In this document: positions 20,024-45,000 of the stretch, in pieces
Numbering within the stretch: position 1 is the stretch's first letter
How the letters are laid out: each line of letters opens with the position of its first letter
Source of the DNA: Spirochaetota bacterium
GTDB lineage: Bacteria > Spirochaetota > UBA4802 > UBA5550
Assembly (NCBI GenBank): GCA_035403545.1
Contig: DAONFJ010000008.1
Span: 4,384 to 68,383, forward strand
Length of the DNA: 64,000 nucleotides
Reading direction: 5' to 3'
Program-made: the position numbers and the translations under genes
The notes under the pieces: generated by a model
The model's database searches: none
Told to the model about the DNA's origin: nothing
Seen by the model: only the letters and a program-made list of their open reading frames with translations

Positions 20024-22521
20024 GTCCGGCCCGCTGTTTTATCAATATTATTCCGTTCGGGATCAAGCCAGCTTTTAAGCAGTCCGTCAACTTCTTTAAT
20101 TTTTATCGGTTTAGCCATATAGTCATTCATCCCGGCTTTAATACACTTTTCTCTATCTCCTTCCATTGCGTGCGCCGTAAGAGCAATAATCAGAACATCC
20201 GGATTCAGGACTCCGGAAATTCCGCTTCTGATCTCAACAGTTGCCTGGAATCCATCCATAGACGGCATCTGGCAGTCCATAAAAACTGCACTATAGTTCT
20301 TCCGTTTAAGCGCTTCAATGCATTCAATTCCATTCGAAGCGATATCAGTTTCATATCCTAGCTTTCTCAGCATTGCATTGGCTACAAACTGGTTTGTTTT
20401 ATTGTCTTCAACAAGAAGTATAGATGCCGATTCCCGTTGCGCGTTATTATTTACCAGGCCCGGTTCATTGAGATGCCGCTGATATTTTTCAAGCTGCTTC
20501 TGCAGAATAATGGTGAACCAGAACAATGATCCTTTATTTTCACCGCTCACTACGCCGATTTCACCGCCCATTAGCTCAACTATCTTTTTTGATATCGCAA
20601 GCCCGAGGCCTGTACCGCCGTATTTTCTGGTTAATCCTCCGTCAATCTGTTTAAATGGAATAAAAAGATCTTTAATATGTTCCCCGGGAATTCCTGTTCC
20701 CGTATCGCTAATTTCAAATTTGAGTTTAACTGTGGTTTCATCTTCATCTGCAAGCCGAATGTTAACATCAATTCTACCTTTATCGGTAAATTTAATGGCA
20801 TTGTGCGATAAATTTGTTACGACCTGCCTGAGTCTGCCGGAATCTCCGCAGAGCGAACATGGTACTGCATCATCAATACTGAAATTAAATTCAAGATTTT
20901 TCTCTATAGCTTTAACAGCAAGCATTTCAACAATGTCGTACATGGCCGTCTGAAGGTTGAAGTTGTGACGGTCAAGTTCAAATTTCTGAGATTCTATTTT
21001 TGAAAGGTCAAGAATCTGGTTGATTATCGCAAGAAGATTATCACCGCTGATCCGCATAATCTCAATAAATTTTTTCTGTTCATCGTTAAGCGGAGTTTCA
21101 AGAAGCAGGCTTAATATTCCGATTATCCCGTTCATCGGAGTTCTGATTTCATGACTCATATTAGCCAGGAACTGGCTCTTTGCAATATTTGCCGCTTCAG
21201 CAGCTATAGCAAAATCGTGAGCCCGTTCAAGCGCAGCTTCAAGCTGTTGATTTGTCTCAATCAGTTCATTCTCTGCTACCTTTCTGGCGGTAATATCGAT
21301 AATAGAAACCATTCCTGAAGCTTTTCCGTTGTATATAACTGTATTTCCTTTCAGCGAAACCCATTTTTTAATACCATTTTTTGCTGTTATGGAAAATTCG
21401 TATGACATATTGTAATTTTCTGAAAGCTGCCGCATCAATGCCCTTTTCCTGACAACGGGCTGGTATTCAATATCTACAAAATCCCAGAAATTCATTTTAT
21501 AAAGCTCATCTTCCGAATAGCCGGATATTTCAACTCCTACAGGATTTGTATACACCCAATGATGTCCATGGTGAATCATAATTGCTACGGGTGACGATTC
21601 CGTGAGGGTACGGAATTTTTCCTCACTCTCGCAGAGAGAATTATTTGTAGAAATAAGTTCTTCATTTGCCGCTTCAAGCTGCTCCAGCGTCGCGTGAAGT
21701 TCTTCGTTTAATGCGGAAAGCTCAAGATTTTTTTTCTGCAGTTCATCTTCGGCATGTTTACGTTCTGTTATATCTTCGGCAATTCCGGCAAAACGGAAAA
21801 TTTTTCCATTCTGATCAAAAACAGGATGGCTTCTTGCCCTGATCCACCGTATATCTTTATCATCTCTTACTATACGGTACTCATACGCTGAAGGAAGACA
21901 GTCTGCCCTCATTTCACGATGAATTTTCAGAATCCTTTCCCTGTCATCAGGGTGAATGATTTCACTGAAAGACCAGGGATTGTCATAAAAACTCTTACAG
22001 GTGCGTCCCCAGATTTTTTCGTAAGCAGGGCTTATATATAACATTGCACCATTACTTATGTCTCGAAGCCAGAATAATTCATTTATACTTTCAGTAAGCT
22101 GGTGAAAATTTGCTTCGCTGGCTTCAATTTTTTTTCTGGACTGAAAAAGTTCAAGAGCCATTTCAATCGATGATATAAGAATATATTCTCCTGAGCCTTT
22201 TGTCACATAACCGTATCTTGTGATGGATTTTACCTGATCAACAATTTCTTTACCGGTATGAGAAGTAAGAAATATAACAGGAAGATCCCTTATCTCCAGA
22301 ATTCTGCGGGAAGCCTCTGCGCCATTCATTCCGGATCCAAGATTAAGATCTATCAGTACCAGGTCAATATCTGCATTGTCTTTTACAGCTTCCAGGGCCC
22401 GTTCTCCACTGGAAACAGCCTGGACTTCATATCCGTTCTTTCTCAGCATTGCTGATTCCGTCAGTGCAATAATTATCTCATCTTCAACAATCAGCAGCTT
22501 TTTATTTTTACTATTTACCAT
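20020..22521 (-). CDS. Hybrid kinase REC-PAS-coiled coil-PAS-HisKA-HATPase-REC
   Basis: FLANMSHEIRTPMNG, DTGTGI, GGTGLGLAI, C-terminal REC (FMDCQMPSMDG). Confidence 0.92.
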   Translation of the reverse strand: MVNSKNKKLLIVEDEIIIALTESAMLRKNGYEVQAVSSGERALEAVKDNADIDLVLIDLNLGSGMNGAEASRRILEIRDLPVIFLTSHTGKEIVDQVKSITRYGYVTKGSGEYILISSIEMALELFQSRKKIEASEANFHQLTESINELFWLRDISNGAMLYISPAYEKIWGRTCKSFYDNPWSFSEIIHPDDRERILKIHREMRADCLPSAYEYRIVRDDKDIRWIRARSHPVFDQNGKIFRFAGIAEDITERKHAEDELQKKNLELSALNEELHATLEQLEAANEELISTNNSLCESEEKFRTLTESSPVAIMIHHGHHWVYTNPVGVEISGYSEDELYKMNFWDFVDIEYQPVVRKRALMRQLSENYNMSYEFSITAKNGIKKWVSLKGNTVIYNGKASGMVSIIDITARKVAENELIETNQQLEAALERAHDFAIAAEAANIAKSQFLANMSHEIRTPMNGIIGILSLLLETPLNDEQKKFIEIMRISGDNLLAIINQILDLSKIESQKFELDRHNFNLQTAMYDIVEMLAVKAIEKNLEFNFSIDDAVPCSLCGDSGRLRQVVTNLSHNAIKFTDKGRIDVNIRLADEDETTVKLKFEISDTGTGIPGEHIKDLFIPFKQIDGGLTRKYGGTGLGLAISKKIVELMGGEIGVVSGENKGSLFWFTIILQKQLEKYQRHLNEPGLVNNNAQRESASILLVEDNKTNQFVANAMLRKLGYETDIASNGIECIEALKRKNYSAVFMDCQMPSMDGFQATVEIRSGISGVLNPDVLIIALTAHAMEGDREKCIKAGMNDYMAKPIKIKEVDGLLKSWLDPERNNIDKTAGRT

Positions 22522-22563
22522 TTTTTTTCCTGCCGCTGGCCCGGGGAGGACCTTCGCGGATTA

Positions 22564-24759
22564 CTATTCAAGTTCATGCGCATTTTTAATTAATTTCGGC
22601 ACGTCAAGTATATACGCAACTTCGCCGGTACCAAGGATAGTTGAACCGCTTAGCCATTGAAGCTTACTGAATATTTTACCCATAGGTTTGATTACTGTCT
22701 GAAACTCTCCGATGAGATCATCAACAACAAGTCCGATTTTTTTTCTTGAATATTCGACTACTACAACTTTCGGTTTTTCCGGCTCTTCGCCTGATTCTCT
22801 AAAGAATTCCCGCATCTTCATAAAAGGGAGAACTTCTCCTCGCAGATTAATATAATTTCCGCCTTCTTTAGAATCAAGTTCTTCTTTACGTATCTCAGTG
22901 CATTCCGTAACCATGTCAAGGGCGAGTACATAATATGAATCGGCAATCCTTACCATGAATCCGTCAATTATAGCCAGAGTCAGCGGGAGATGTATCCGTA
23001 CCGTTGTACCAAGCCCCTTTTCGCTTTCAAGAAAAACATTACCTCGGAGAGATTCAATATTTTTCTTTACAACATCCATTCCTACACCGCGTCCCGAGAT
23101 GTTCGACACTTCTTTCGCCGTGGAAAATCCCGGCTGAAAGATGAATTTATATAATTCATCATCCGTATATGCCTGATCCGGTTTAGCAAACCCCTGTTCT
23201 ACAGCCTTATTAAGAATACTTTCCCTGTTCAGGCCGTCGCCGTCATCGGATACTTCAATCACGATACTTCCGGTTTCATGATAAGCATTCAATGTGAGGA
23301 TACCTGCGGCCGGTTTACCGGCCTTCTCTCTCTCGGCCGGGGTACCGATTCCATGATCTACCGAGTTACGGATAAGATGTATTAATGGATCGGACAGTTT
23401 ATCTATAAGGGTCTTGTCGAGTTCTGTTTCACCGCCGATTATCTTCAGTTCAACACTCTTCCCTTTTTCCCTGCTGAGGTCACGGACTACTCTTTCAAAT
23501 CTGCTGAAAGTCTCACCGATAGGAACCATCCGTATCCCCATTGTACTGTCTCTTATCTCTTCTATGAGTTTTGACATATCAGTAACAGCTTTCGCTATTC
23601 CCAGCTTGTCGTCTGATTCGGAGATCTGTTTTACGTTTGAACCTGTTATTACAAGTTCACCGATAAGATTTATAAGATGATCAAGTTTCTCCGCATCTAT
23701 TCTTATGAGTTTACGGTCGCTCGCCTCTCTCTTCTTTACATTTTCCTGTTTGCTCAGGGCCGCATCCAGAATGTGTTTCTGTATCATCTTCTCTTCAACA
23801 AGTATCTTACCCACAAGAAGGTCTTCCGGCGGTTTCTTTTTTTCTGCGGAAAGTTCCGCCTGCAGCTCAAGAGCTATTTCGAGTTCAGTATCAGTCAATG
23901 ATCCTATCTCGCGAAGCATATCCCCGATCTTCATAGGTGTCTCGGGCAGTTCTTCTATAAGTTTAACATATTCTGCTATACTGGATTTCGGAGGGAGTAT
24001 CCTTATATTGCAATCGTTCATAACGAAATCAAAAACATCCTCAATCTCTTTCTTGTTTATGCTGCTTCTGAAATCCATTTCAAATCCGAGATAACAGAGA
24101 TCTGCTTTCATCTCACTGCCGTAAGGCATGTCTTCATAAACAGTTTTAATGTTCTGTATTTCACCTTTCTCGCCCAGATAACTGATAAATGAATATGGAT
24201 CAAGTCCGTCTTTAAAAACATTTCTTCCGAACCTCAGAGATATATGCCAGCAATCGTTGCATACCAGCATCTCATCCGGATCTGCGCATGATGATTCCAG
24301 TTCAATAACAGTCTCAAGTTCCTTCTCTTTTAACTTTTCGGTTTTTTCAGCATCCGGAATAAAATTATTCAGACGTTCTTTAAGTACTGCGAACAGGGAT
24401 TCGCTCTCATCGTCAAGCGGGAGTTCCTCTTTACTTTCATAATGGTCAAGGAGTATCTGTATAAAATCATGGCATTCAAGTAGAAGGCCGATTAATTCAG
24501 GGGTTATTATTACTGTTTTGTTTCGCGTGCACACAAGAAGATTTTCCAGGACATGCGCGAATTCGCCGATCCGTCCGAATCCGAACATCCCGGAATTTCC
24601 CTTAATTGTATGGGCAGTCCTGAAAATGGAGTTAATCGAATCTTCATTTGTACTCTCTTTTTCCAGCGCAAGAAGTGACATCTCCATTGAGTCAAGAAGT
24701 TCCCTGCTCTCGGTAAAATAGACATTTTTAAAATTCTTTTCGTTATTTATATCTGCCAT
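22564..24759 (-). CDS. cheA: Chemotaxis histidine kinase CheA
   Basis: P1 FRTAHTIKG, dimerisation LDHLINLIGELVI, HLIRNSVDHGI, GRGVGMDVVK, P5 LPLTLAII. Confidence 0.96.
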   Translation of the reverse strand: MADINNEKNFKNVYFTESRELLDSMEMSLLALEKESTNEDSINSIFRTAHTIKGNSGMFGFGRIGEFAHVLENLLVCTRNKTVIITPELIGLLLECHDFIQILLDHYESKEELPLDDESESLFAVLKERLNNFIPDAEKTEKLKEKELETVIELESSCADPDEMLVCNDCWHISLRFGRNVFKDGLDPYSFISYLGEKGEIQNIKTVYEDMPYGSEMKADLCYLGFEMDFRSSINKKEIEDVFDFVMNDCNIRILPPKSSIAEYVKLIEELPETPMKIGDMLREIGSLTDTELEIALELQAELSAEKKKPPEDLLVGKILVEEKMIQKHILDAALSKQENVKKREASDRKLIRIDAEKLDHLINLIGELVITGSNVKQISESDDKLGIAKAVTDMSKLIEEIRDSTMGIRMVPIGETFSRFERVVRDLSREKGKSVELKIIGGETELDKTLIDKLSDPLIHLIRNSVDHGIGTPAEREKAGKPAAGILTLNAYHETGSIVIEVSDDGDGLNRESILNKAVEQGFAKPDQAYTDDELYKFIFQPGFSTAKEVSNISGRGVGMDVVKKNIESLRGNVFLESEKGLGTTVRIHLPLTLAIIDGFMVRIADSYYVLALDMVTECTEIRKEELDSKEGGNYINLRGEVLPFMKMREFFRESGEEPEKPKVVVVEYSRKKIGLVVDDLIGEFQTVIKPMGKIFSKLQWLSGSTILGTGEVAYILDVPKLIKNAHELE

Positions 24760-24773
24760 GCCGCCCCTCCATG

Positions 24774-25067
24774 TTATATTTTCTCTTTATAAAAAGTGAA
24801 CATTTTATTTAACCTGCTGTTCATTTCAGTTACCCTGAAACTTTTATCATGCAGATCCGCTTCACGCTTTAGAAAGAGAAGGAGCTGAAATCCCGCAGTA
24901 TCAGCTTCATCTACATCAGCAAGATCCAGCGTCAATCCCGGGCAGAATTTAAGTTCATTCAGCAGAATATCTTTCAGTTTCACAGCGGAGTATACGGTCA
25001 TCTCTCCAGTTAATTTTAAATGAAGATCTTCATTATCTGTTTTTTTTCTGATTATCTTAAGTCTCAT
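24774..25067 (-). CDS. STAS-domain (anti-sigma-antagonist-like) protein
   Basis: LKLTGEMTVYSA...LDLADVDEADTAGFQLLL. STAS genes are typical of F7/F8-type che clusters. Confidence 0.88.
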   Translation of the reverse strand: MRLKIIRKKTDNEDLHLKLTGEMTVYSAVKLKDILLNELKFCPGLTLDLADVDEADTAGFQLLLFLKREADLHDKSFRVTEMNSRLNKMFTFYKEKI

Positions 25068-25094
25068 AGCACACCTTCTCTTTTATCATCCTGT

Positions 25095-25463
25095 CTATAC
25101 TGTAAAAAGTTTTTTTACAGCGTTAATAAGCTGCTCAGGCTGAAATGGTTTTATCATCCAGGCCCTGGCTCCAGCCTCTTTTCCCTCGTTTATCATATCG
25201 CCGCCTGCTTCGGTTGTCAGCATTATTACCGGTGTGTGTTTATAATTCCTGTCTTCTTTTATTTTTTTAAGCAGAGTAATTCCATCCATTTCAGGCATAT
25301 TGACGTCAGATATAAAAAGGCCTATGATGTGCTCTCTCATCAGATTAAGCGCATCCACACCGTTAGCTGCTTCAACCACTTCGTAGCCGGCACTCTTCAG
25401 CGTAAAAAGCAGGGACTGCCGTACCGCATTTGAATCATCAATAACCATTATTTTTTTTGACAT
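25095..25463 (-). CDS. cheY: CheY-like single-domain response regulator (start ATG 25463)
   Basis: MVIDDS...ISDVNMPEMDG...LTTE...MIKPF; adjacent to STAS-cheA. Confidence 0.88.
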   Translation of the reverse strand: MSKKIMVIDDSNAVRQSLLFTLKSAGYEVVEAANGVDALNLMREHIIGLFISDVNMPEMDGITLLKKIKEDRNYKHTPVIMLTTEAGGDMINEGKEAGARAWMIKPFQPEQLINAVKKLFTV

Positions 25464-25542
25464 TTTTTTCTCCCGGTTCAAATAGTATCTTTATTATTAA
25501 TATAACTTCTCAAAAAACGCGGATAATCATGCTCTCTGCGGG

Positions 25543-26088
25543 TCATTGGAAATTCCCATCAATATTAGATAATTCTTCTATGTTTAATATGTTCTGCACC
25601 CTGAGAAGTATAACAAACTGATCGTCAAGTTTTCCTATACCTTCGACAAAGTCAGGTCTTATTCTGCTTCCGATTTCAGGTACAGCTTCAATATTACTTT
25701 CATAAAGTTCTGTTACAGCTTTTACTGAATCGATGATAACACCAATTGGAGTCTTATGATTATCATCGTCAACCTCCACCACAACAATTGATGTAGTGGA
25801 GGTTACCTTGAATGATGTATTATAGAACCTGGAATGAAGATCGATAATCGGCACAACCTCGCCTCTCAGATTTATTACTCCTTTTAAAAATTCCGGGACC
25901 CGCGGTAATTTAAAAACCTGTTTATATTCAATTACTTCACGTATTTCACTCACCTGTATTCCGAAAAGATCTTTCCCGAGCAGAAAAGTCAGGTAGAGCA
26001 CCAAATCACCGTCTGCAGATACAGTCATTTCACTTTCCGGATCAATGTTTAAAACATAATCTTCATCGGTTCTAATTATTTCTTCCAT
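25543..26088 (-). CDS. cheW: CheW scaffold protein (alternative start 26103)
   Basis: YLTFLLGKDLFGI...GVINLRGEVVPIIDL...GVIIDSV. Confidence 0.93.
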   Translation of the reverse strand: MEEIIRTDEDYVLNIDPESEMTVSADGDLVLYLTFLLGKDLFGIQVSEIREVIEYKQVFKLPRVPEFLKGVINLRGEVVPIIDLHSRFYNTSFKVTSTTSIVVVEVDDDNHKTPIGVIIDSVKAVTELYESNIEAVPEIGSRIRPDFVEGIGKLDDQFVILLRVQNILNIEELSNIDGNFQ

Positions 26089-26137
26089 TGCTTCACCTTC
26101 CATTTACTTATACTTATCGTGCCCCGATTTCTACCGA

Positions 26138-26156
26138 CCCCGCACCCCGGAGGGGG
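26138..26156. repeat. GC-rich intergenic element at the cheB/cheW junction
   Basis: CCCCGCACCCCGGAGGGGG. Confidence 0.75.
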
Positions 26157-26235
26157 CAAAGATTAATTTCAACATCATACTTATACATCTTCTATAAAAT
26201 CTTATCTGCTTTTGCTCCATCCTCGGGTGTAGAGC

Positions 26236-27318
26236 CTAGTTTACACACTCCCGGAGTACAGCACCTGCAATTGCATTGAGTGGAAGAATCTTATCAACCG
26301 CTCCAAGTTTTATCGCTTCATTGGGCATTCCGAAAACTACACATGATTTTTCGTCCTGCGCTATATTATATGCTCCCGCCTGTTTCATCTCAAGCATCCC
26401 GCGCGCACCGTCATCACCCATACCGGTCATCATAACACCGACTGTATTAGCACCGGAAAACTGCGCAGCCGACCTGAAGAGCACGTCCACCGATGGACGG
26501 TGCCGTGAAACGAGCGGGCCATCTTTTACTTCAACATAATATCTTGCCCCGCTTCGTTTAATAAGAAGATGTTTATTGCCTGGAGCGATAAGGGCCCTGC
26601 CGCGGAGAATAGTATCATTGTCCTCCGCCTCTTTGACTTCTATATCACATAATCCGTTAAGGCGGGCTGCGAATGCTTTCGTAAAATTTTCAGGCATATG
26701 CTGGACAATTACAATTCCAGGGCAATCCCGGGGTATCGCTTCCAGAAATATTCTCAAGGCTTCGGTCCCGCCGGTTGAAGCTCCGACCGCTACTATTTTC
26801 TCTGTAGTGCGCAGCATCGCTTTGCCGGTCGGGCGCGGAATTACAGCATCGGCGCTTAACTTCGCGGATGGTTTAATCCTGTTTTTCATTGAAATGCTTA
26901 TTACTTTGACCTGTGCCGCTGCTTTTACTGTATCACATATTCTAATCTGCGATTCTTCAATAAACTGCTGGATACCAATTTTGGGTTTGGTAATAATATC
27001 AACAGCCCCGTACTCAAGCGCGCGGAGGGTAGTTTCAGCCCCGGCTTCAGTAAGACTCGAACACATAACTACAGGGAGAGGATGTTGAGTCATGATTTTC
27101 CGGAGAAAAGTTATTCCGTCCATGCGCGGCATCTCAACATCAAGTATAATTACATCGGGAAGTTCTTTCCTGATTTTCTCAGCGGCTATGAACGGATCTC
27201 CCGCCGTATCAAGTACTTCGATCGCGGGATCTGATTCAAGAATCTCTCTCATCACCTGGCGGACAACAGCTGAATCGTCAACCACAAGCACTTTGATTTT
27301 TTTCTGCATTAAATTCAC
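26236..27318 (-). CDS. cheB: Chemotaxis methylesterase CheB (REC + esterase)
   Basis: [14 protein letters not shown]; intact catalytic motifs GASTGG, QHMP, GMGDDG. Confidence 0.96.
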
Positions 27319-27382
27319 CCTGTTAAAACAAATGTTACCAAATTAAGACATCGTCTACCAACGCACACATCTCACTCCAGCT

Positions 27383-27401
27383 CCCTCCGGGGGTGCGGGG
27401 G
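27383..27401. repeat. GC-rich intergenic element at the cheR/cheB junction (opposite orientation)
   Basis: CCCTCCGGGGGTGCGGGGG, 3 nt beyond the cheR stop. Confidence 0.75.
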
Positions 27402-27404
27402 ATC

Positions 27405-28298
27405 TCACTCCTTCGGTTTCCTGTATACTGTCGGGCCCGCGGGGATAAAATCGCTATTAACACCATAAAGAGTTTCAGAACTCCCGATGAAAAGATATCC
27501 CCCGGGTACCAGATGTTTATAAAACTTTTTAAATAATTCCTTTTGTGTTTCCTTATCAAAATAAATAATAACATTGCGGCAGAATATAATATCCATATCC
27601 GTATCAACATTAAACTTAGTATCCATCAGGTTCAGCTGTTTAAAAGTCACTCTCTCCCTGAGCGGAGGAACGATTCTGAACAGTCCTTTCTTCTCGCCCG
27701 TTCCCCGCATAAGATATTTATGCCTCATTGAGACCGGGATCGGCTGTATTACGCTCTCCGGGTAAATTGCGTCATAACCGGTCTGCAGAACTTTTGGAGA
27801 GATGTCAGTGGCGAGGATTCTGTATTTACCATTATTTTTCATACCGGAAAAATATTCCGACATTACCATAGTAAGAGTATAAGCCTCCTCGCCGGTTGAA
27901 CATCCTGCACTCCATATATTAACCATTTTTCTCTCATTAAAATTTTCCAATGCGGCAAGATCCGGTAATACCTTTTTTACGAGAATATCAAAATGATCCG
28001 GCTCGCGGAAAAAGTCAGTTTTATTTGTTGTTACTGCATCAATCATTTTGCTGAACTCTTCTAATTTTCCCTTTTCGGTACAGAGAAAATCGTAGTATTC
28101 TTTGTACGATCTGAGCCCGAGAACTTTAAGACGCTTTGTCAGCCTTGAAATAAGCATAAGTTTTTTTGTCGGAGGCATTTTAATTCCCAGACGGTTATAG
28201 ATAAGTGTACTGAATAGTGAAAATTCACTGTCACTCATGTTCACAACACCGGTTCCGGAAATTGATGTCTCTTCGCTTATGTTTATTTTACCAGGCAT
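27405..28298 (-). CDS. cheR: Full-length chemotaxis methyltransferase CheR
   Basis: N-domain (GIKMPPTKKLMLISRL), TTNKTDFFRE, WSAGCSTGEEAY, ATDIS, FCRNVIIYF. Confidence 0.96.
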   Translation of the reverse strand: MPGKINISEETSISGTGVVNMSDSEFSLFSTLIYNRLGIKMPPTKKLMLISRLTKRLKVLGLRSYKEYYDFLCTEKGKLEEFSKMIDAVTTNKTDFFREPDHFDILVKKVLPDLAALENFNERKMVNIWSAGCSTGEEAYTLTMVMSEYFSGMKNNGKYRILATDISPKVLQTGYDAIYPESVIQPIPVSMRHKYLMRGTGEKKGLFRIVPPLRERVTFKQLNLMDTKFNVDTDMDIIFCRNVIIYFDKETQKELFKKFYKHLVPGGYLFIGSSETLYGVNSDFIPAGPTVYRKPKE

Positions 28299-28321
28299 CT
28301 GTTTATTCTACCTCCTTTTAG

Positions 28322-28342
28322 CCCCCGCACCCCCGGAGGGGG
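28322..28342. repeat. GC-rich intergenic element at the MCP/cheR junction
   Basis: CCCCCGCACCCCCGGAGGGGG, immediately upstream of the cheR RBS (AGGAGG on the minus strand). Confidence 0.75.
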
Positions 28343-28375
28343 CCGACAAGTGCTGATTGCAAAATTTTTTAGTGC

Positions 28376-30631: not shown

Positions 30632-30702
30632 AAACTGTTATATTGCATAAATTTTATTAGTTCCATTTTTACTAAACTCCGTTAGACCTCGAACCCTTTG
30701 CT

Positions 30703-30721
30703 CCCCCCGGGGATGCGGGGG
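30703..30721. repeat. GC-rich intergenic element at the MBL/MCP junction
   Basis: CCCCCCGGGGATGCGGGGG; a partial TCCGGGTGCGG follows at 30731-30741. Confidence 0.7.
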
Positions 30722-30760
30722 CCTGAGATTTCCGGGTGCGGCAAAGACCCGTTAAATACA

Positions 30761-32028: not shown

Positions 32029-32038
32029 TCCAGATACC

Positions 32039-34401: not shown

Positions 34402-34477
34402 AAAATATTCCTTCTACTGAATTCATGCTTTTATTGAAAAATATATCAGCCGCAAGCCCCAAGGACGGGGGAGAAAT

Positions 34478-36772
34478 TCACACATCGAATTCAATAATAA
34501 ACTTCGTTCCGTTCATGCGTTCAATCCGGACACTTCCGCCAATCTGCTGTGTAAGCATGCTGATAAGGCTTAGCCCAAAACCAGTTGAGTGTTCAATATC
34601 AACCGTTTCAGGAATGCCGTTCCCGTCGTCCGCAATACTTATAACAACATGGTTATCATTCATTGATGCGAAAACAGCTATCAATCCCCTGTCCCTTCCG
34701 GTAAAGGCATACTTCATTGCATTGGTTATAATTTCGTTTACTATTATTCCAAGTGGAAATAAAGTTTTTGCATCAACATTGAAATCCTGAATATGTTTCT
34801 CTATTTTCACCTGCTCAATCATAATAAAATTTGCGGATATTTCATCTATAAGCGAGGGGAGATATTCTTTTAACGATAAATCCCTGAAGTCATCAGAACG
34901 GTACAGTTTATCGTAGAGTACAAGCATGCTCTGCACCCGGCTTTGGGCATCTTCAAGCGCAGCAATGGCAGAAGAGTCCTTCATCGTTTCAGCCTGGAGT
35001 GTAAGGAGGCTGTTTATAGTGTACATATTGTTTTTGATACGGTGATGCACCTCTTTAAGAAGAAGTTCTTTCTCTTCGAGAAGGTTTTTTATTTTTTCTT
35101 CATCGCACTTCCGCTCGGTAATGTCATTAAACACAGTCAGCATTGCCGGTTTACCTGAATATGTAAACGGTATTGCCGTAACGCTGACTGTTATACTATT
35201 CCCATCAAGGGTTTTAAAAATTTCCTCGACAGGTTCACCTCTCAGCTGCTTAGAGACTCCATTATTTATTCTCTTTGACACCAGCTCGAGGTAATCGGGA
35301 TGAACAAAATCCATTACATTGAATCCGATCAGCTGACCGGGATATTCAGCATGAATTATTTTATGCGCCGCCTCATTCGCATAAACAATTTTTCCATCCG
35401 AATGTATTACAACACCATCCGGAAGTATGCGGGCCAGGTTTCTATACCTCTCTTCACTCTCACACAAGGCATCTTCAATTTTTCTGCGTTCAGTAACATC
35501 TATACCGACACCCATTAAATACAATTTGCCTTCAGCCTCAAACCTTACTCCGGTCAGAAGAAACGGGATGAGGGCGCCGTCTTTACCCCTGAGGAGCGAT
35601 TCCATCGTTGCATACCCTTTATCCATTACCTGTTTTACAGCGCCGGCAACCGCATCTTTCGCTTCAGGTATATGCCAGTCGAACAGGCTGCGGTCTTTTA
35701 TCTCGGACGGATCGAAACCGAGAATTGTCTCATGATTTTTATTCCATCGTTTTAACTGCAGCCCGGGGTAAGAGTAGAGGTAAAAAATACCGGGGAGGCT
35801 GTCGATCAGGCTGTTCGTAAAAAACTGTTCATCCCTTACAGCCTGTTCCTTACTCTGCAGATCCCGGTTAGCAGCGGTAAGTTCTTCATTCATCGCTTCA
35901 AACTCTTCATTGGCCGCTTCCAGCTCTTCCATGGCTGCAATGAGTTCCCCGTTAAGCGCGCTCAGTTCCTCATTCTTGGTATTTATCTTCCGCTCAAATT
36001 CTTTCCGTTCAGAGATATCTCTGGTAATTGACAGGATATGCGGTTCATTTTTCAGTTTTATAATACGGGCCGACATTAAGGCAGTTTTCGTCGAACCGTC
36101 CTTGCAGCGGAATAAAGATTCAAGATTTTCCACCGACCCGCTTTCTGTAAGTCCTTTTATAAGTTTTACCCTGTCCTCCGGCCTGGACCAGATATCTATC
36201 TCTGATGACAGAACACCTATAACATCATCTCTTGTATAGCCCGTCAGTTTTGTAAAACCATCGTTTATGTCTACATACATCCCGTCCATGCCGTTTATAT
36301 TTACTGCATCAGGGCTTGTCATAAATGCAGCGCGGTATTTCTCTTCACTCTCTTTCATTGCCAGCATGGTGTTTTCAATATTCCTGTTAGCTTCAAATAG
36401 TTCAAATGCCATCTCAATGGAAGAGTTCAGTACAAAATCTCCCGAGCTCTTAATGACATATCCATAACGGGTTATACCTTTTACCTTCTCTACCATTTCC
36501 CTTTCGGAATGTGAAGTTTGAAAAACTATGGGTATATTTCTAACTGTGAGAATCCGGCGGGCAGCCTCTGTTCCATCCATACCTTCCCCAAGATCAATAT
36601 CCATAAGGGCCAGGTTTATTGAGTTGTCAGAAACAGCGAGTTTAACAGCTTTCTCTCCGGAATTTACAGATATTACATCATATCCGAATTTCTTTAATGC
36701 CCTGGCTGTGATAATAGAAATTATAGCCTCATCTTCAACAAGAAGTATAGTTTTAGTAATGTCGTTATTCAT
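34478..36772 (-). CDS. Soluble kinase REC-PAS-coiled coil-PAS-PAS-HisKA_2
   Basis: N-terminal REC, EE-rich heptads, EVHHRIKNNM, DDGNG. Confidence 0.9.
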   Translation of the reverse strand: MNNDITKTILLVEDEAIISIITARALKKFGYDVISVNSGEKAVKLAVSDNSINLALMDIDLGEGMDGTEAARRILTVRNIPIVFQTSHSEREMVEKVKGITRYGYVIKSSGDFVLNSSIEMAFELFEANRNIENTMLAMKESEEKYRAAFMTSPDAVNINGMDGMYVDINDGFTKLTGYTRDDVIGVLSSEIDIWSRPEDRVKLIKGLTESGSVENLESLFRCKDGSTKTALMSARIIKLKNEPHILSITRDISERKEFERKINTKNEELSALNGELIAAMEELEAANEEFEAMNEELTAANRDLQSKEQAVRDEQFFTNSLIDSLPGIFYLYSYPGLQLKRWNKNHETILGFDPSEIKDRSLFDWHIPEAKDAVAGAVKQVMDKGYATMESLLRGKDGALIPFLLTGVRFEAEGKLYLMGVGIDVTERRKIEDALCESEERYRNLARILPDGVVIHSDGKIVYANEAAHKIIHAEYPGQLIGFNVMDFVHPDYLELVSKRINNGVSKQLRGEPVEEIFKTLDGNSITVSVTAIPFTYSGKPAMLTVFNDITERKCDEEKIKNLLEEKELLLKEVHHRIKNNMYTINSLLTLQAETMKDSSAIAALEDAQSRVQSMLVLYDKLYRSDDFRDLSLKEYLPSLIDEISANFIMIEQVKIEKHIQDFNVDAKTLFPLGIIVNEIITNAMKYAFTGRDRGLIAVFASMNDNHVVISIADDGNGIPETVDIEHSTGFGLSLISMLTQQIGGSVRIERMNGTKFIIEFDV

Positions 36773-37051: not shown

Positions 37052-37606
37052 ATGAAACCAGCAGTAAACATACATATAGGGGATTACTACTCCAGCAGAA
37101 CACCTGTTATTATTACGACAATACTCGGACCATGCGCGGCTGTTTGTCTCTTTGACTCAGAAAATAAAATAGGGGGGATGAACCATATACTCCTCCCCGG
37201 AGACAGCCCTGCAGAAATTGATTCAGGCGATTCCAGATACGCAATAAATGCCATGGAACTTCTTATAAACCAGATGATGAAACTGGGTGCAAACAGGTAC
37301 AAACTGACCGCAAAAGTTTTTGGCGGAGCATCAATACTCTCCACAATTTCTTCTGAATTCGGCATGGGGATGAGAAACATTGAATTTGTTGTGGATTTTC
37401 TGTTAACTGAAAAAATCCCGATCACCAATTATAATTTCGGGGGAGTAGACTCCAGAAGAATTTATTACCACACCGACACAAATGTTGTATTATTAAAAAG
37501 AATTAAATCAAGAGAAGTAATTAGAGAATTCGTCAATGCCCGGCAAAAGCGCCATGATGTTGAAAAAAAAATACAAAAAGCTTCCTCTATCGTATTCTTC
37601 GACTGA
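37052..37606 (+). CDS. cheD: Chemoreceptor glutamine deamidase CheD
   Basis: TILGPCAAVCL (catalytic Cys), GGMNHILLP, AKVFGGA, GMRNIEF, RRIYY. Confidence 0.92.
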   Translation: MKPAVNIHIGDYYSSRTPVIITTILGPCAAVCLFDSENKIGGMNHILLPGDSPAEIDSGDSRYAINAMELLINQMMKLGANRYKLTAKVFGGASILSTISSEFGMGMRNIEFVVDFLLTEKIPITNYNFGGVDSRRIYYHTDTNVVLLKRIKSREVIREFVNARQKRHDVEKKIQKASSIVFFD

Positions 37607-37725
37607 TGCTGCTGTTAATTACTAAAAAAGCAGACTTGCCATAGTAATACAGAAAAATCCGCGTTTTCTTAAATTCAGAAATTACCGCAAATGGGCTCTA
37701 TATGTTTAATAACATAAAGAATGCC

Positions 37726-40700
37726 TCACTCCTCCGGTGTAAATATAATATCTACTGCAGTTCCGTTATCTTTTTTAATTTTAAGCACTCCCCCGATCTG
37801 CTCCGCCAGGGCAGAAACCAGATTCAGTCCGAAACCGCCGGACATTGAAGATACAACGTCATCAGATACCCCCACTCCGTCATCTTTGATAGAAATACTT
37901 ACTTCATCATTAACCTTAGTAACAGTAATTACAATTTCCCCTTCTCTCCCCTGAGGAAAGGCATATTTGAAAGCATTGGTAATAAGCTCATTTATAATAA
38001 TTCCGAGAGGGAAAAGTATCTTGGTATCAAGCACAAAATCCGAAATATCCTTCCTGATCTTTACCAGCCCATGATTCTCAAAAATAACGAAAATCTCATC
38101 TATAAATTTTTCAAGATACTCTTTCACGGACATTCTGCGGTAATCTTCCGATCTGTAAAGTTTGTCATACATAATCATCATGCTCTGAACACGGTTCCGT
38201 GCGTCGTTAAGTGCTGTTACCGCAGCATTATTGTTTATTGATGACGCCTGGAGCATAAGAAGCCCGGAAATTGTATTCATGTTATTCTTTATTCTGTGAT
38301 GCACCTCGCTAAGAAGCATCTCCTTCTCCTTAAGAAGGGAATTTATCTTTTCAAAAGACTCTCTGCTCTCAGTAACATCCCGGTTGATTCCCCTTCTCCC
38401 TGCAAAAATTCCATCCTTATCATAAACTGCACGGCACGCATGATTGATCCACTTTACACTTCCGTCTTTCCTTGTTATTCTGAATTCAATTTCATTTGCC
38501 TGTGGAATCTCCTCAACTTCACTCCAGCTAAGACATGGACTTTCCGAATCCTCCTTAAAAACAATTCTGCCGAGCAGGAGCGGATCATTCATAAATTCAG
38601 TATTTGTATAACCTGTAATTCTTTCACATGCGGGTGAACAGTAAATCATTCTGCCATCAGTACCGACCCAGAACTCCCAGTCGTAAGTATAATCAGCCAC
38701 CGTTCTGTACTTTTCGAAACTGGCTTCGAGTTCCTTTCTTATCATTTTTTCTGAGAGAGCAATTGCTATATTGTCAGCAAGGTGCTCAATCAGATTTATA
38801 AGTTCCCCGGTAAACATCCCTGTTCTTTTATCATTCAGCTGTATCAGTCCGAAAGTATTATCACCTGTTCTGAGAGGTATAAGAGCTACGGATTCATAGC
38901 CCATACCGTTACATCTGTTCCTTGTATGCGCACGCCTGTCTTCATCTGTTGTCGTTCTCAGCAGATCTGTAGTGCAGTTTGACCAGAAGCTTCCATGTTC
39001 CGTGAAGAATGGTTTCGAAGGATCAAACCTTGCACTTATAATATTTCCGCACATGCACTCAACAACAGGATTACCTATATCGTCCCTGAGGAGCTGCCCC
39101 TTAATATCATAAGCGCAGAGTGAATTTTCCAGTTTTATAAATTCAGATGGAAAACCTTCAGCTTCAAGATACGGATAATCTTCGCCGTCCTTCATGCGTA
39201 TACCGGCAGCTTCACATCCGGACCATTTTTTCAGAAAAGTTATAACCATCTTCATAAGATCATGCAGATCACCGCTTGAATTAATTATACGCAGAAGATC
39301 CATTATTGCATTCTTCTCATGAGCAGCAGTTTCGCGCTCAGTTATATCCCTGCTGATTCCAAGCAGAGATGTAATTTTACCGTTTTTATATATAGGAGTT
39401 TTTAAAGTATCAAAATAACGGATCTCCCCTCTTATACAGGCTGTTTCATTTTCAACAACAACCTTTTCGCCTGAAAGCGCCCGAAAATCATCCGATTCAA
39501 AACCTCGGATTCCTTTTTTAATATTTCCCTTAACAAACTCTTCACCCCAGCCGCATTCAATATCGGTCTTCCCTATAAGGTTTTCCGGCCTGCTGTTTAA
39601 TCCCGATGCATAAACTTCGTTGCACATGACAAGTCTGAGACCGGTATCTTTAACGTAAATATAATCCGGAGATGAATTGATTATATTAAGCAGCATCTTC
39701 CGGCTCTCCTTCAGAGATGTCTCAGCTATTTTACGTTCGGTAATATCCGAGATAATGCTGTCATACTCGATGAGATTGTTATCATTGTCATAATGCGGCA
39801 CTGGCGTATTTCTCACCCATGAAACAGACCCGTCGCGGCATATAATCCTGTGTTCAACAGGATTAAAAATTGCCTTATTGATAATATCCGACGCGAACAG
39901 AATTACACGCCCTCTGTCATCTGGATATATTACCTTATACCATAGTTCGGGGTCAGATGTAAAATCTTCCGGAGTGTATCCGGTAATTGCCTCGCATCCC
40001 GGTCCATGGACAGTCTTCACCGGATTTTTTTTGTCTATATAAACTGTGTACACATAACCCACTACTGAATCAAAGAGGCGATTATATCTCTCATCCCTCT
40101 CCTTTAGAAGCTCTTCCGCTTTTTTACGGTCTGTAATATCCTCTAATATCGTCGCGAAAAAACCCTTCATAGTAGAATACGCTGTGACCTTAAACCACTT
40201 GTTCAGTCCGCGCGAATAGTTTTCAACAGAAATCTGCACGCCTGTAAACGCCACCCGGCCGTATTCCGGGATCCGGTAAGGTTCAATATCCGGCATAATC
40301 TCGGAAACTTTCCGCCCTGTTATAGCAGCAGCCTTTAAACCGGTATACTGTTCAAAAGCAGGATTAACCTCAAGAAAAATGTAATCAACGGGATTTCCCC
40401 GTTCATCAGCAACAATCTCATGCAGAGCGAATCCGTTTTTCATTCCTTCAAACAGCTCTTTGTATTTCTTATCTTTTTTTAACAGCTGTTTCTCGGTGAT
40501 TTTTTTTCCGGTAATATCCCTTGCTCCAAGAACTGATCCTGTACGGATTCCGGCCTCATCATAAATATTCCGTCCGGTAGCTTCGAACCACCGGTACGAA
40601 CCATCCTTTTTCCTTTGCCTGAATTCGACGTAACCTTCACCGGCAGAACAAATGCGCAGGATACCTTTAATATCTTCGTCCCTGGTTGACGGATGGGCAA

Positions 40701-41901
40701 GTTCCGGGGCCCATGTCCCGACGAGTTCCTCCGGCCTGTACCCCAGGACTCTTTCATATGAGGGCGATACATATTTGAAAAAACCTTCAGAATCAATACG
40801 CGCCACAAGATCGACCATGTAATCCGTAACATCACTAAGCCTCTCCTCGCTCTCCCTGTGAAGAGAGGAATAACGGTCGCGTTCCGACAATGTCCTGGCG
40901 AGTTTAATATTGCTGTAGCTCAGTCTGGAAATGATATTTGCAAGTTTTATATTGAAGGTCATTGCTGTGAAGATCGTATCCCGGCCACACCTTGGGACAC
41001 GGTTCAGGGCGTCGATATACTCCTCCTCATCAAAACCGTACCTGTGCGCCTGCGAACGGAACAAATCGTAATCTATAACATCGTCATCAAAAAAAAACTG
41101 CCCCACAAAAAGGTTACCAACATGTTTTCCGCCTACTTCAATCGGTGTTGCCATATCCCGCATGTTATTTTTGCATTTATACAGCTTATAAGTTCCGTCT
41201 GCTGTCCCGTTTGAAAGGACAGTATCGCTCTCTACGCAATTACGGCATGTGTCCGGATTTATCCGGTGAAATTTTGTACATATATCCTGCCAGCCGGATG
41301 TGACAAGAACTTTACCGTTAATGTCAACTATCGAAATAGTGATGGCAGTCAGAGAATAAAAATCATCCATGATAGACTGAAGCATCCGTATATCCACTAT
41401 ATCCGCGAGTTCAAGCAATCCTGTATCCCCGTCGGGGGAAAGAATGCTGTCAAGTTTGGATTTTACCATCTCCTCGCTCTTTCGAAGAACATCCGCCGAT
41501 TTTTTTAATTTTTCATGAGACGCGAAAAGTTCAAACGCCATCTCTATTGAAGAGAGCAGGACAAAATCACCTGAATTTTTTATGACATACCCGTAGCGGG
41601 TAATCTCTCTTACCATTTCCACAATTTTCTGTTCCGAGTGAGAGGTAAGAAAAACAATAGGAAGGTTCTTCTCCTGAAGAATCTGGCGTGCCGTTTCAGG
41701 GCCGTTTATACCGGGGCCTAAATCTATATCCATGAGAATAAGATCAATCGAAGTATCAGCCATAGCAGCTTCAACAGCATTTCTGCCGTTGTTCACCGTT
41801 ATAACATCATATCCGCTTCTTCTCAGCATTCTGGCTGTTACCAAGGCGATAACAGCCTCATCCTCCACAAGAAGAAGTTTTTTACTCCTTTCGATTTCCA
41901 T
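37726..41901 (-). CDS. Soluble kinase REC-PocR-multi-PAS-GAF-PAS-HisKA_2
   Basis: PocR-like GWQDICTKFHR...CKNNMRDMATPI; several PAS/PAC units; EVHHRIKNNM. Confidence 0.9.
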   Translation of the reverse strand: MEIERSKKLLLVEDEAVIALVTARMLRRSGYDVITVNNGRNAVEAAMADTSIDLILMDIDLGPGINGPETARQILQEKNLPIVFLTSHSEQKIVEMVREITRYGYVIKNSGDFVLLSSIEMAFELFASHEKLKKSADVLRKSEEMVKSKLDSILSPDGDTGLLELADIVDIRMLQSIMDDFYSLTAITISIVDINGKVLVTSGWQDICTKFHRINPDTCRNCVESDTVLSNGTADGTYKLYKCKNNMRDMATPIEVGGKHVGNLFVGQFFFDDDVIDYDLFRSQAHRYGFDEEEYIDALNRVPRCGRDTIFTAMTFNIKLANIISRLSYSNIKLARTLSERDRYSSLHRESEERLSDVTDYMVDLVARIDSEGFFKYVSPSYERVLGYRPEELVGTWAPELAHPSTRDEDIKGILRICSAGEGYVEFRQRKKDGSYRWFEATGRNIYDEAGIRTGSVLGARDITGKKITEKQLLKKDKKYKELFEGMKNGFALHEIVADERGNPVDYIFLEVNPAFEQYTGLKAAAITGRKVSEIMPDIEPYRIPEYGRVAFTGVQISVENYSRGLNKWFKVTAYSTMKGFFATILEDITDRKKAEELLKERDERYNRLFDSVVGYVYTVYIDKKNPVKTVHGPGCEAITGYTPEDFTSDPELWYKVIYPDDRGRVILFASDIINKAIFNPVEHRIICRDGSVSWVRNTPVPHYDNDNNLIEYDSIISDITERKIAETSLKESRKMLLNIINSSPDYIYVKDTGLRLVMCNEVYASGLNSRPENLIGKTDIECGWGEEFVKGNIKKGIRGFESDDFRALSGEKVVVENETACIRGEIRYFDTLKTPIYKNGKITSLLGISRDITERETAAHEKNAIMDLLRIINSSGDLHDLMKMVITFLKKWSGCEAAGIRMKDGEDYPYLEAEGFPSEFIKLENSLCAYDIKGQLLRDDIGNPVVECMCGNIISARFDPSKPFFTEHGSFWSNCTTDLLRTTTDEDRRAHTRNRCNGMGYESVALIPLRTGDNTFGLIQLNDKRTGMFTGELINLIEHLADNIAIALSEKMIRKELEASFEKYRTVADYTYDWEFWVGTDGRMIYCSPACERITGYTNTEFMNDPLLLGRIVFKEDSESPCLSWSEVEEIPQANEIEFRITRKDGSVKWINHACRAVYDKDGIFAGRRGINRDVTESRESFEKINSLLKEKEMLLSEVHHRIKNNMNTISGLLMLQASSINNNAAVTALNDARNRVQSMMIMYDKLYRSEDYRRMSVKEYLEKFIDEIFVIFENHGLVKIRKDISDFVLDTKILFPLGIIINELITNAFKYAFPQGREGEIVITVTKVNDEVSISIKDDGVGVSDDVVSSMSGGFGLNLVSALAEQIGGVLKIKKDNGTAVDIIFTPEE

Positions 41902-41998
41902 CTCTCGTTACTCCGGGAATAAATCTGGAAGTATGCGCTAAAGAATTAATCTAAGCAAAAATCGGTATTTAGTCAAACTTTAAATTAAAAACATATCA

Positions 41999-42030
41999 CC
42001 GCAGTGACAAGCAGCGGCCCGTCACTGCGG
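41999..42030 (-). terminator. Hairpin directly after the stop of the 1377-aa kinase
   Basis: CCGCAGTGAC...GTCACTGCGG, 10-bp stem; T-rich tract downstream on the minus strand. Confidence 0.5.
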
Positions 42031-42031
42031 G

Positions 42032-45000
42032 TTATAATTCACTTTTAATATCTACAAGCCACTTTCTGATCATGTCATCAATATCCCTGCGCTTAACCGG
42101 TTTGGAAAGGTAATCATTCATCCCCGCTTCAACGCATTTTTCCCTGTCTCCTTCCATAGCATGAGCAGTAAGCGCAATTATTGTCACATCAGGATTAAGC
42201 ACTCCGGAGTCACCACTCCTGATATATTTTGCCGCTTCATATCCATCCATATCAGGCATCTGGCAGTCCATCAGCACCAGGTGATAATCATTTTTTTTCA
42301 ATGCTTCAATACAATCATATCCGTTAACGGCATAATCTGATTTATATCCGAGTTTGCTTAAAATTGCAGTTGCTACATGGCGGTTTGTTTCATTATCCTC
42401 AACCAGAAGTATCCGTATTGAATTACGGTTAAAATCCGCTTCAGCTACACGCGCGGTTCTTCGTTTTCTTTTTACAGTTTCCTTCTGCTTTTCAACCGGC
42501 ACTGTAAAATAGAATACCGATCCGATTCCCGGAGTACTCTCAAGCTCAATACTACCGCCCATAATTTCGGAAAGTTTTTTTGAAATTGCAAGGCCAAGGC
42601 CGGTTCCGCCGTACCTCCGCGTCATGGCGCTGTCAACCTGGGTAAATGGCATAAAGAGTTCCTTTATCTTCTCTTCATGAATACCGATGCCGGTATCCTG
42701 AATCTTAAACAGAAGAACCGCTTCGGAATCTGATTCATTCACAATAGAAATGCGGATTGAAACACTTCCCTGCTCGGTAAACTTAACCGCGTTATGGGTA
42801 AGATTTGTAACAATCTGCCTTAGACGGCCGGAGTCACCTTTCAGTAAAAGAGGTACATCCGCGCCGATCTCTGCTGAAAGTTTAATACTTTTTCTTTCTG
42901 CTTTAAGTGAAAGCAATTCAATAATACCATCAATAATATTTTTCAGGTTAAAATCATAGCTTTCAAGCTGAAATTTTTCAGATTCAATTTTTGACAGATC
43001 AAGAATTTCATTAATTATAGTTAGAAGGGTATCACTGCTCGAGCCTGCAATTTCAGCATATTTTCTCTGCATCGGTTCAAGCTCCGTATCAAGAAGAAGG
43101 CTCAGCATTCCGATCACACCATTTATCGGAGTCCTGATCTCATGGCTCATATTCGCAAGAAACTGGCTTTTTGCCATATTGGCAGACTCGGCCTGAAGCG
43201 CAAGTGAATTGGCCCTCTTTACCGAGTCTTCAAGCTGCCTGATAGTTTTGACCAATTCCTCTTCCGCTCTTTTGCGTGCGGTTATTTCCATCACTGAAAC
43301 AATTCCTGCGGGCTCTCCCTTGTACTGGATGGAACCCCCTTTTAGTGATACCCATTTTTCACTGCCCTGCTTTGATATAATTTTAAATTCATACGGCAGT
43401 GGAAAATTCTTTGAGGCCTGGCGCAACTCGGCTCTTTCCCGGACAATAGCCCTGGATTCAGGCACAACGAAATCCCAGTAATTCATCCGATATAACTCAT
43501 CTCTGGTATAACCGAATATTTCTTCACCCGAATGATTAGTGTATACCCAGCGGTTTCCCTGGTGTATCATAATTGCGGCAGGTGATGATTCTGTAAGATT
43601 TCTGAAAATCGATTCGCTCTCATGGAGTTTGTCTTCAAGAATTTTTCTTTCCGTAATATCATGTATAATAGAAAAAAGCACTTTCTTGGTTTTGATTGCA
43701 ATACCGGCGGAAAATACCTCTACCGTATGGATGTCGCCGTTTGAAAGCTTGTGGGGAAAAATAAAGTGATTCTTTTTATTGGTAAATACCAGGTTGAGGT
43801 CATTTTTAATCTGTTCGGGGGTAAGCATATTAATTTCTGTTATCTTCATACTTATCAGTTCGTCACGCGTGTAGCCGTAGAAATCAACTGCTGAATTATT
43901 GACATCAACGATCATCCCGTCAGCAGGATCTATGAGCATCATGACTGCGTTATGCTCATAGAACATTTTCCTGAAACGCTCTTCGCTCTCGCGGAGCACC
44001 TCCTCGGCCTCCTTCCGGTCAGTTATATCCAGGAGATGCACTACAGTAAAAACTTTTTTATGCGCATCCGCATAAATTGAAATTCTCACTTCACAAATTT
44101 TCTGGGCTCCATCCTTTCGTATAATAGCCAGCTCATAACCTGATACTACATCATCACCTTTCTGGCGGGAGTAGTATCTTTCTGTTACAGCTTCCCTCTC
44201 TTCTTTATTTATAAATTCATAAAACTTACGGCCGGTCATCTCTCCTGAACTATAACCGAATACTTCACATACTCCTTCATTGACAAATGAAATGACCGAT
44301 TTGTTATCGATAATCATTATTCCGCCGTGAGTATTTTCAACAATAGACCTGTAGCGCTCCTCGCTCGATATCAATGCGACATTAGTAGTGATCAGCTCTT
44401 CATTTGCAGTCTCCAGCTCTTCAAGTGTAGATTGAAACTCCTCATTTATACTTTCAAGTTCGCAGTTATACTGTTTCATGTCATCTTCAAACAGTTTTCT
44501 CTCTGTAATATCGAGCGCAGTGAATGTGACACCCTTCGCAGGATCATTGATGTTAACAGGAGTTGAACTTAAAATTATGTTAATATTTCTTCCGTCTTTA
44601 CACTGCCACACTGTTTCAACAGTACCGGTTCCCTTCTCCACTATCTGATTATATCTTGCCTCTTCGTCATACTCATAGAGTTCATCTGATGGATAAAACT
44701 TTCTTGAGCTTTGATTTAAAATTTCCTCTTTTGAATAACCTGTCATTTTGCATAAAGTATCATTCGCTTCAAGTATCACCCGGTTTCTAACAAGGCCTAT
44801 GCCGACAGGCGCTGCCCTGAAAATACTTTTTATAGCATCATCTTTTTCAATGAGAATATTTTCTGATCTTATCTGCTCGTTATACAGTACAGCAATAGAA
44901 AGCTGATCAGCCATCTGGCACGCAAAAGTTATTTCATCCGGCATCCATTTATGGGTTTTATCCACGTGCCCGAAAGATAAAATTCCGGCATTCCGGCCTG

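Follow-up and report, generated by a model that had tools for sequence, protein, structure and literature searches.

Candidate methyl-accepting coiled coils in three sensor kinases encoded next to a chemotaxis operon of a Spirochaetota bacterium

Three sensor kinases with glutamate-rich heptads

In a 64,000-nucleotide stretch of a Spirochaetota genome (assembly GCA_035403545.1, contig DAONFJ010000008.1; hereafter the window, in whose numbering plain positions are given), glutamate-rich heptad segments are found in three sensor kinases that lie beside a chemotaxis operon, all encoded on the minus strand. Segments of this kind bring to mind the proteins called MAC (for methyl-accepting coiled coil), which Wuichet and Zhulin in 2010 reportedly predicted to be kinases adapting through methylation in the absence of a chemoreceptor. 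All three kinases, here called P0001, P0002 and P0003, carry an N-terminal receiver, PAS or GAF sensor domains, a HisKA or HisKA_2 domain and a HATPase_c domain as identified with Pfam, P0001 and P0003 being HisKA hybrids with a C-terminal receiver and P0002 having a HisKA_2 core. The coil segment occupies, in each of them, a gap without Pfam annotation between two PAS domains. A sequence-only reading of the window had quoted three heptad peptides from three histidine kinases, and all of them were recovered as exact peptides, on the minus strand, in genes that Pfam identifies as kinases. The genes and their segments are as follows.

20020-22521, minus strand: P0001, hybrid histidine kinase of 833 amino acids, REC-PAS-(putative MAC coil)-PAS-HisKA-HATPase-REC (translation, Pfam, coordinates of the open reading frame, ORF)
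21646-21720, minus strand: coil peptide of P0001, LSALNEELHATLEQLEAANEELIST, with core heptads NEELHAT-LEQLEAA-NEELIST
34478-36772, minus strand: P0002, kinase of 764 amino acids, REC-PAS-(putative MAC coil)-PAS-PAS-HisKA_2-HATPase (Pfam)
35870-35944, minus strand: coil peptide of P0002, LIAAMEELEAANEEFEAMNEELTAA, with core NGELIAA-MEELEAA-NEEFEAM-NEELTAA
42032-46165, minus strand: P0003, hybrid kinase of 1377 amino acids, REC-PAS-GAF-PAS-(putative MAC coil)-PAS x3-HisKA-HATPase-REC (Pfam)
44384-44455, minus strand: coil peptide of P0003, ESINEEFQSTLEELETANEELITT, with core NEEFQST-LEELETA-NEELITT

The heptad pattern

The pairs of acidic residues that had been noticed by eye, Glu-Glu or Glu-Gln at a period of 7 residues followed by x-x-[AST][AST] or A-M, are present in P0001-P0003, and they are not expected by chance. 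We searched for three consecutive heptads of the form xE[EQ][LFIMV]xxx in six-frame ORFs of at least 100 amino acids from the 3.7-Mb assembly and in the same ORFs after shuffling of their residues. Seven of 5,824 ORFs (1.44 million residues) contain the pattern, against a mean of 0.03 and a maximum of 1 in the shuffled sets. The seven are P0001-P0003, two more REC-PAS kinases built alike (C4:6950-9796, where the coil is present twice, and C76:3476-6646) and two chemoreceptors, in which the match is the true C-terminal methylation helix. Such kinases and chemoreceptors are thus the only kinds of protein that the pattern selects in this genome.

The heptad can be written N-E-E-L-x-[STA]-[TAS], with Asn at a, the Glu pair at b and c, and Leu at d, and each kinase carries 3-5 such heptads in phase. 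Among 2,320 heptads from 215 proteins, frequencies that are inflated by the procedure by which heptads were selected are 66% for Asn at a, 73% for Glu at b, 86% for Glu at c and 93% for Leu at d, with Gln or Glu at e, Ser, Thr or Ala at f, and Thr, Ala or Ser at g; Glu at the exposed position c is thus nearly as frequent as the core Leu at d and more frequent than the core Asn at a. The resemblance to chemoreceptors is closest in the second half of their methylation consensus. P0001, P0002 and P0003 match the C-terminal half, [EQ][EQ]xx[AST][AST], 3, 2 and 3 times respectively, at exact heptad spacing. The full form, [ASTG]2-x2-[EQ]2-x2-[ASTG]2, is matched by SALNEELHAT of P0001, as had been proposed, and this is the only such match in the three kinases. 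The chemoreceptor of the local operon has four full matches, and all 24 ORFs of the genome with at least two full matches are chemoreceptors.

A single predicted helix

An AlphaFold2 model of residues 130-430 of P0001 places the segment within one unbroken helix of 57 residues that links the two PAS folds, a single helix without a receptor-like hairpin. The predicted local confidence (pLDDT) of the helix is 89-94 over residues 121-160 of the modelled fragment and drops to 85 and 69 at the C-terminal end. In the kinase dimer, the helices of P0001-P0003 would pack in parallel as a two-stranded coiled coil, leaving the Glu pairs exposed to solvent.

21598-21768, minus strand: predicted helix of P0001, residues 252-308, 57 amino acids (residues 123-179 of the AlphaFold2 fragment)

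Relatives of the segment in other genomes

No Pfam or NCBIfam model covers the coil of P0001-P0003, which agrees with the statement in the description of MiST3 that MAC proteins had no profile hidden Markov model before MiST made its own (PMC6943060). The class is divided into MAC1, in which CheB and CheR domains are incorporated, and MAC2, which is associated with CheB and CheR (bioRxiv 10.1101/2022.05.07.491037), definitions that we take from two secondary sources, this preprint and PMC6943060. Our own search profile was made from six coil segments of this genome only (alignment A1).

A motif scan of one genome per species, 185,579 species in all, yielded 51 confirmed coil loci, distributed over Pseudomonadota, Actinomycetota, Bacteroidota, Chloroflexota, Cyanobacteriota, Myxococcota, Gemmatimonadota, Acidobacteriota and Spirochaetota, and including a methanogen. 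The coil shares one ORF with CheR in 35 of the 51 loci, where it lies 150-250 residues C-terminal of the CheR domain; most of these are CheB-CheR fusions, and those of Actinomycetota are CheR-coil proteins with an adjacent cheB. In the other loci cheR is directly upstream (4/51) or no cheR lies within the flanks (12/51). The fused coils, of which NEELQSTNEELETANEELQSTNEEL is an example, are the same module in a longer form of about 6-9 heptads. An exhaustive HMMER search with the profile against 1.84 billion representative proteins gave 10,903 matches at E <=0.001, and the profile also retrieves the MAC1 proteins of relatives. When the best 150 of the 10,903 matches were tallied for domains, setting aside a top match of 4,802 amino acids, the 44 proteins of at least 500 amino acids among them contained CheR (22), CheR_N (18), CheB (10), PAS_10 (21), HATPase_c (17) and receiver (11) domains. 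A word-indexed homolog search with the coil alone returned close orthologs only and is for that reason uninformative on the link to CheR.

A profile drawn from this genome's own coils thus retrieves the coil C-terminal of CheB-CheR in many phyla, which bears out the earlier assignment of the segments to the MAC type, and to judge from sequence they very probably are this module. P0001-P0003 are accordingly 'free' (unfused) MAC members with enzymes encoded separately, new members of a known, uncharacterised class. The 4,802-residue top match of the profile search (P0010, from the representative library and outside the window) has 42 separate coil-like stretches and a score of 168 bits.

Co-occurrence with CheR

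The coil is expanded in this Spirochaetota lineage. It is found in 53 of 61 close relatives from the same order, with up to 19 profile matches per genome, and since 58 of the 61 have CheR, co-occurrence within this group is uninformative. In Bacteroidota, where 142 of 301 genomes (47%) have CheR and 82 have the coil, both are present in 76 genomes, the coil only in 6, CheR only in 66 and neither in 153 (odds ratio 29, Fisher p = 3e-24, not corrected for phylogeny). The sequence-only reading had held that heptads equally common in genomes lacking CheR would be purely structural helices; in this phylum they are not equally common there. Four of the six genomes with the coil only owe their place to matches in short or stop-ridden frames, and the other two hold apparent CheB-CheR-type fusions cut by contig ends, with ORFs that begin or end at the contig edge, in a stretch that by eye resembles the PAS_10-like region ahead of the coil in the fusions; the association therefore has no real exception.

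Much of it is trivial because the coil and CheR are fused. CheR is also present, however, in every Bacteroidota genome with unfused coil kinases (G065, which has four of them, G097, G225, G249, G281 and G329), and it was found elsewhere in all 10 genomes checked whose coil locus had no cheR in its flanks. The co-occurrence, with statistics that ignore phylogeny, supports a functional tie between coil and CheR.

Some of these Bacteroidota merit a separate remark. In G067, G097, G249, G281 and G329 (loci L027, L069 and L070), unfused coil kinases of 830-960 amino acids are accompanied by a sole CheR match that is markedly weaker (E ~1e-40). This CheR is a stand-alone ORF of about 275 amino acids in G067, like the second CheR of G065, and it does not lie within 3 kb (G281, G329) or 8 kb (G067) of the coil kinase. 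The combination may represent a separate-enzyme, MAC2-like arrangement.

The chemotaxis operon and its linkage to the coil kinases

The operon beside the kinases was delimited from Pfam, NCBIfam and ORF data. Its genes, and a cheD gene that lies apart from it, are listed here in order of position.

22564-32548, minus strand: chemotaxis operon
22564-24759, minus strand: cheA
24774-25067, minus strand: STAS-domain protein of 97 amino acids
25095-25481, minus strand: cheY-like receiver of 128 amino acids
25543-26103, minus strand: cheW
26236-27318, minus strand: cheB
27405-28298, minus strand: cheR, full length
28376-30631, minus strand: mcp
30761-31399, minus strand: MBL-fold hydrolase, with a weak match to the ODP family
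31396-32028, minus strand: short cheR of 210 amino acids, with the S-adenosylmethionine-binding domain only and no CheR_N
32039-32548, minus strand: second cheW
37052-37606, plus strand: cheD, homolog of the chemoreceptor glutamine deamidase (PF03975, 87.8 bits)

Transcription runs from the second cheW through the short cheR, the MBL hydrolase, mcp, cheR, cheB, cheW, cheY and the STAS gene to cheA. Upstream of the operon lie a 5TM kinase, P0002, the plus-strand cheD, the coil-free kinase P0004 and P0003. Downstream, 42 bp separate cheA from the start of P0001, whose stop and the start of the following kinase gene share 4 bp, so that co-transcription of P0001 with the operon is most likely. The kinase genes thus lie within or beside a full CheA system, as the sequence-only reading had stated, the window holding CheA, two CheW, CheB, a full and a short CheR, and CheD. 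Its contrast with CheA-less MAC systems was overstated, about 80% of species with MAC proteins also having other chemotaxis systems (bioRxiv 10.1101/2022.05.07.491037).

The arrangement recurs in relatives. An ortholog of P0001 likewise follows cheA in a same-genus genome (locus L001). The complete genome G006, of the same genus, has the operon followed by five coil kinases, cheD and the ortholog of P0004, and in G002, also of the genus, cheD is divergent from a CheB-CheR-coil gene that is followed by six coil kinases and then by the operon. The linkage of che operon, coil kinases and cheD (in G002 together with MAC1) is therefore conserved within the genus. The cheD gene is the sole plus-strand gene within the kinase array, and its position is kept in G006 and G002; against the NCBIfam models for CheD its best score is 157 bits, under the equivalog cut-off.

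Candidate enzymes

The assembly, which is 79.6% complete, encodes seven CheR, five CheB and five CheA proteins. In a tree of CheR sequences, those linked to coils form one clade (36 rows, SH-aLRT 93), the five full-length CheRs encoded here group apart in another (100), and the two short CheRs fall outside the coil-linked clade on a branch 4.2 substitutions per site long. The CheB-CheR-coil fusion, MAC1, occurs in 17 of the 61 genomes searched, including four of the seven other genomes of the genus, and orthologs of the short CheR likewise occur in 17 of the 61. A MAC1 gene could lie in the missing 20% of the present genome. Its loss off the end of the contig that holds the window is unlikely, as the array ends with unrelated genes and MAC1 adjoins cheD in G002.

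Two further loci touch on these enzymes. An 'orphan' CheR-CheD pair without CheA or CheB (C48:15895-24373) was considered as a MAC partner and set aside, since it sits at the end of a flagellar flhF-flhG-fliA cluster in which, from a reading of the translations, flhF, an flhG-like ATPase, a fliA-type sigma factor and a FapA/DUF342-like protein are encoded. The MAC1 gene of another genome of the genus (L053, G004:C40:5500-14500) has an in-frame TAA between the CheR halves, which may point to a pseudogene or to an error in the assembly.

Adaptation by methylation and its alternatives

The explanation that we favour is that P0001-P0003 are free MAC kinases modified in trans by che enzymes. The coil helix would relay the PAS signal to the kinase core. 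Its exposed Glu pairs would be acted upon in trans by methyltransferases of the CheR type, esterases of the CheB type and possibly CheD; neutralisation of at most two charges per heptad per chain would change the stability of the coiled coil; and kinase output would be reset by this change, so that the two-component kinase itself would adapt. Taken as a whole, structure and mechanism included, we consider this account somewhat better than an even bet, and the chance that the coils of P0001-P0003 are actually methylated about even. Methylation is made plausible by the near-exclusive presence of the coil in genomes with CheR, by the conserved exposed Glu pairs and by the local clustering. That methylation acts directly on kinases is itself plausible and is the already published MAC hypothesis.

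A number of results weigh against this account. Full receptor consensus occurs in 1 of about 9 heptads, with no match in P0002 or P0003, and Gln is rare at the pair positions (3-5%), so that there is no strong signature of deamidation. P0001-P0003 have no Pfam match to MCPsignal (PF00015), and a profile search of the PDB with the coil returned unrelated coiled coils only. None of the seven CheRs in this 79.6%-complete assembly belongs to the coil-linked clade, and the assembly likewise has no CheB-CheR fusion. CheD was rejected as a general neighbour of MAC proteins, being found outside the genus beside MAC1 genes in 1 of the 51 loci. Mean coil counts are higher in relatives with the MAC1 fusion than in those without it (11.2 and 5.2, p = 7e-4), a point in favour of the account, and also higher with than without the short CheR (10.7 and 5.4, p = 7e-4), but these correlations are confounded by the rise of coil count with genome size (rho 0.73), and both the fusion and the short CheR are missing from seven relatives that have 9-19 coil matches. 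As of 2022, none of the MAC proteins had been shown to be methylated or otherwise characterised by experiment (bioRxiv 10.1101/2022.05.07.491037), and in the literature searched we found no later work on MAC methylation and nothing relevant on CheB-CheR fusions or MAC experiments.

The seven relatives also bear on the question of which enzyme would act. They imply that neither MAC1 nor the short CheR is required, and if neither is required, canonical CheRs must be capable of methylating free coils, should these be methylated at all. The short CheR, which the sequence-only reading had linked to the heptads, does not stand up as a dedicated partner: it falls outside the coil-linked clade on its long divergent branch and is absent from 13 relatives with at least 9 coil matches, including the seven that also lack MAC1, and we rejected it as the required writer. 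A more specific proposal is that the full-length CheR, CheB and CheD, as canonical enzymes of a flagellar-type CheA operon, also methylate, demethylate and deamidate the coils of the REC-PAS kinase family, which has 6-19 matches per genome in this lineage, so that one adaptation system would serve many two-component pathways, the N-terminal receivers being a possible second link to CheA. We hold this extension to be tentative and rather unlikely.

The free coil may instead be a structural or dynamic linker, an Asn-zipper by which the spacing and register of neighbouring PAS domains are fixed, inherited or shuffled from CheB-CheR fusions and no longer, or never, methylated. The predicted helix is continuous and in phase with an ordinary PAS-PAS linker, the strict methylation consensus is mostly unmet, the coils here have 3-5 heptads against about 6-9 in the fusions, and the coil-linked type of CheR is absent from the assembly; many coil-rich relatives, moreover, have neither MAC1 nor the short CheR, and half of the strongest matches worldwide have no CheR in the same protein. 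Yet structural coils seldom conserve the exposed positions b and c, and here c is Glu in 86% of heptads, a figure subject to the selection bias already mentioned. Free coil kinases were moreover found only in CheR-bearing genomes, even in Bacteroidota, and they cluster in a conserved manner with the che operon, with cheD and, in G002, with MAC1. We regard the linker as a real possibility that falls well short of an even chance.

Less probable still, and in our view quite unlikely, is that the coil is a shared protein-protein interface through which the kinases cluster with each other or with MAC1, or dock CheR or CheB, many sensors thus being brought together in a single signalling assembly, with any methylation taking place on the MAC1 partner. 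With up to 19 matches to the module in one genome, near-identical heptads would allow heterodimers; MAC1 is encoded by more than half of the other genomes of the genus, and the co-occurrence of a rare CheW class with MAC1 has raised the idea of arrays (bioRxiv 10.1101/2022.05.07.491037). The coil is bordered at either end by PAS domains of its own chain, however, which favours in-register homodimers, many genomes have coils and no MAC1, and no direct evidence for such an interface was found.

Comparison with known systems

The favoured account, of free MAC kinases modified in trans, can be set against what is seen in related systems. MAC1 proteins, of the form CheB-CheR-PAS_10-coil-PAS-kinase, have the same NEELxS/T-T/A module as P0001-P0003, and in both PAS and often kinase domains come after the coil. 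P0001-P0003 differ in that they have no fused CheB or CheR (neither a CheB_methylest nor a CheR domain in Pfam) and no PAS_10, begin with a receiver, and place a coil of 3-5 rather than about 6-9 heptads between ordinary PAS domains. They resemble MAC2, which is compared here from its description in secondary sources, in being coil kinases with methylation enzymes encoded separately nearby, but the CheR and CheB encoded next to them are part of a complete CheA-MCP operon and the CheR lies outside the coil-linked clade.

The methylation helices of chemoreceptors (PF00015 and the local MCP) share with the NEELIST and NEELHAT heptads of the kinases Glu-Glu or Glu-Gln pairs every 7 residues followed by x-x-small-small, whereas the coil described here is a single helix and not an antiparallel hairpin of a four-helix bundle, has Asn at a, and mostly lacks the upstream half of the consensus. 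Ordinary linkers between PAS domains or between PAS and kinase, the S-helix among them, are like the coil in being helical and in phase with the flanking PAS domains, and presumably transmit signals as well; they are about 20-25 residues long and are not known to have conserved exposed Glu pairs, a ladder of Asn or a link to CheR.

The locus is a compact test case, offering three candidate substrates of different length together with full CheR, short CheR, CheB and CheD within 25 kb, and it has built-in controls in the coil-free kinases of the same array (negative) and the local MCP (positive). Modification of the kinases by canonical che enzymes, if it occurs, would mean that adaptation in the style of chemotaxis also reaches ordinary two-component signalling. 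Beyond the window, it may matter that the coil is essentially confined to genomes with CheR and is yet detached from the enzymes in many lineages.

Other genes at the locus

Several regulatory genes without the coil accompany the three kinases.

17296-18066: NarL/GerE-type response regulator, downstream of the REC-PAS-HisKA_3 kinase
18218-20023, minus strand: REC-PAS-HisKA_3 kinase, translationally coupled to P0001, no coil
32806-34401, minus strand: 5TM-LYT/PAS/HisKA_2 kinase, between the operon and P0002, no coil
37726-41901, minus strand: P0004, REC-PocR-PAS-GAF-HisKA_2 kinase of the same array, an internal negative with no match to the coil profile

The HisKA_3 kinase and the response regulator form a complete two-component pair downstream of cheA (17296-20023, minus strand), and the same order is found at locus L001. 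Two pairs of genes within the operon also recur elsewhere. The MBL hydrolase and short CheR genes (30761-32028) overlap by 4 bp; contig C24 holds a second copy of this pair, and G002 and G006 have it as well. The STAS and CheY-like pair (24774-25481), which stands between cheW and cheA, is also present at L001.

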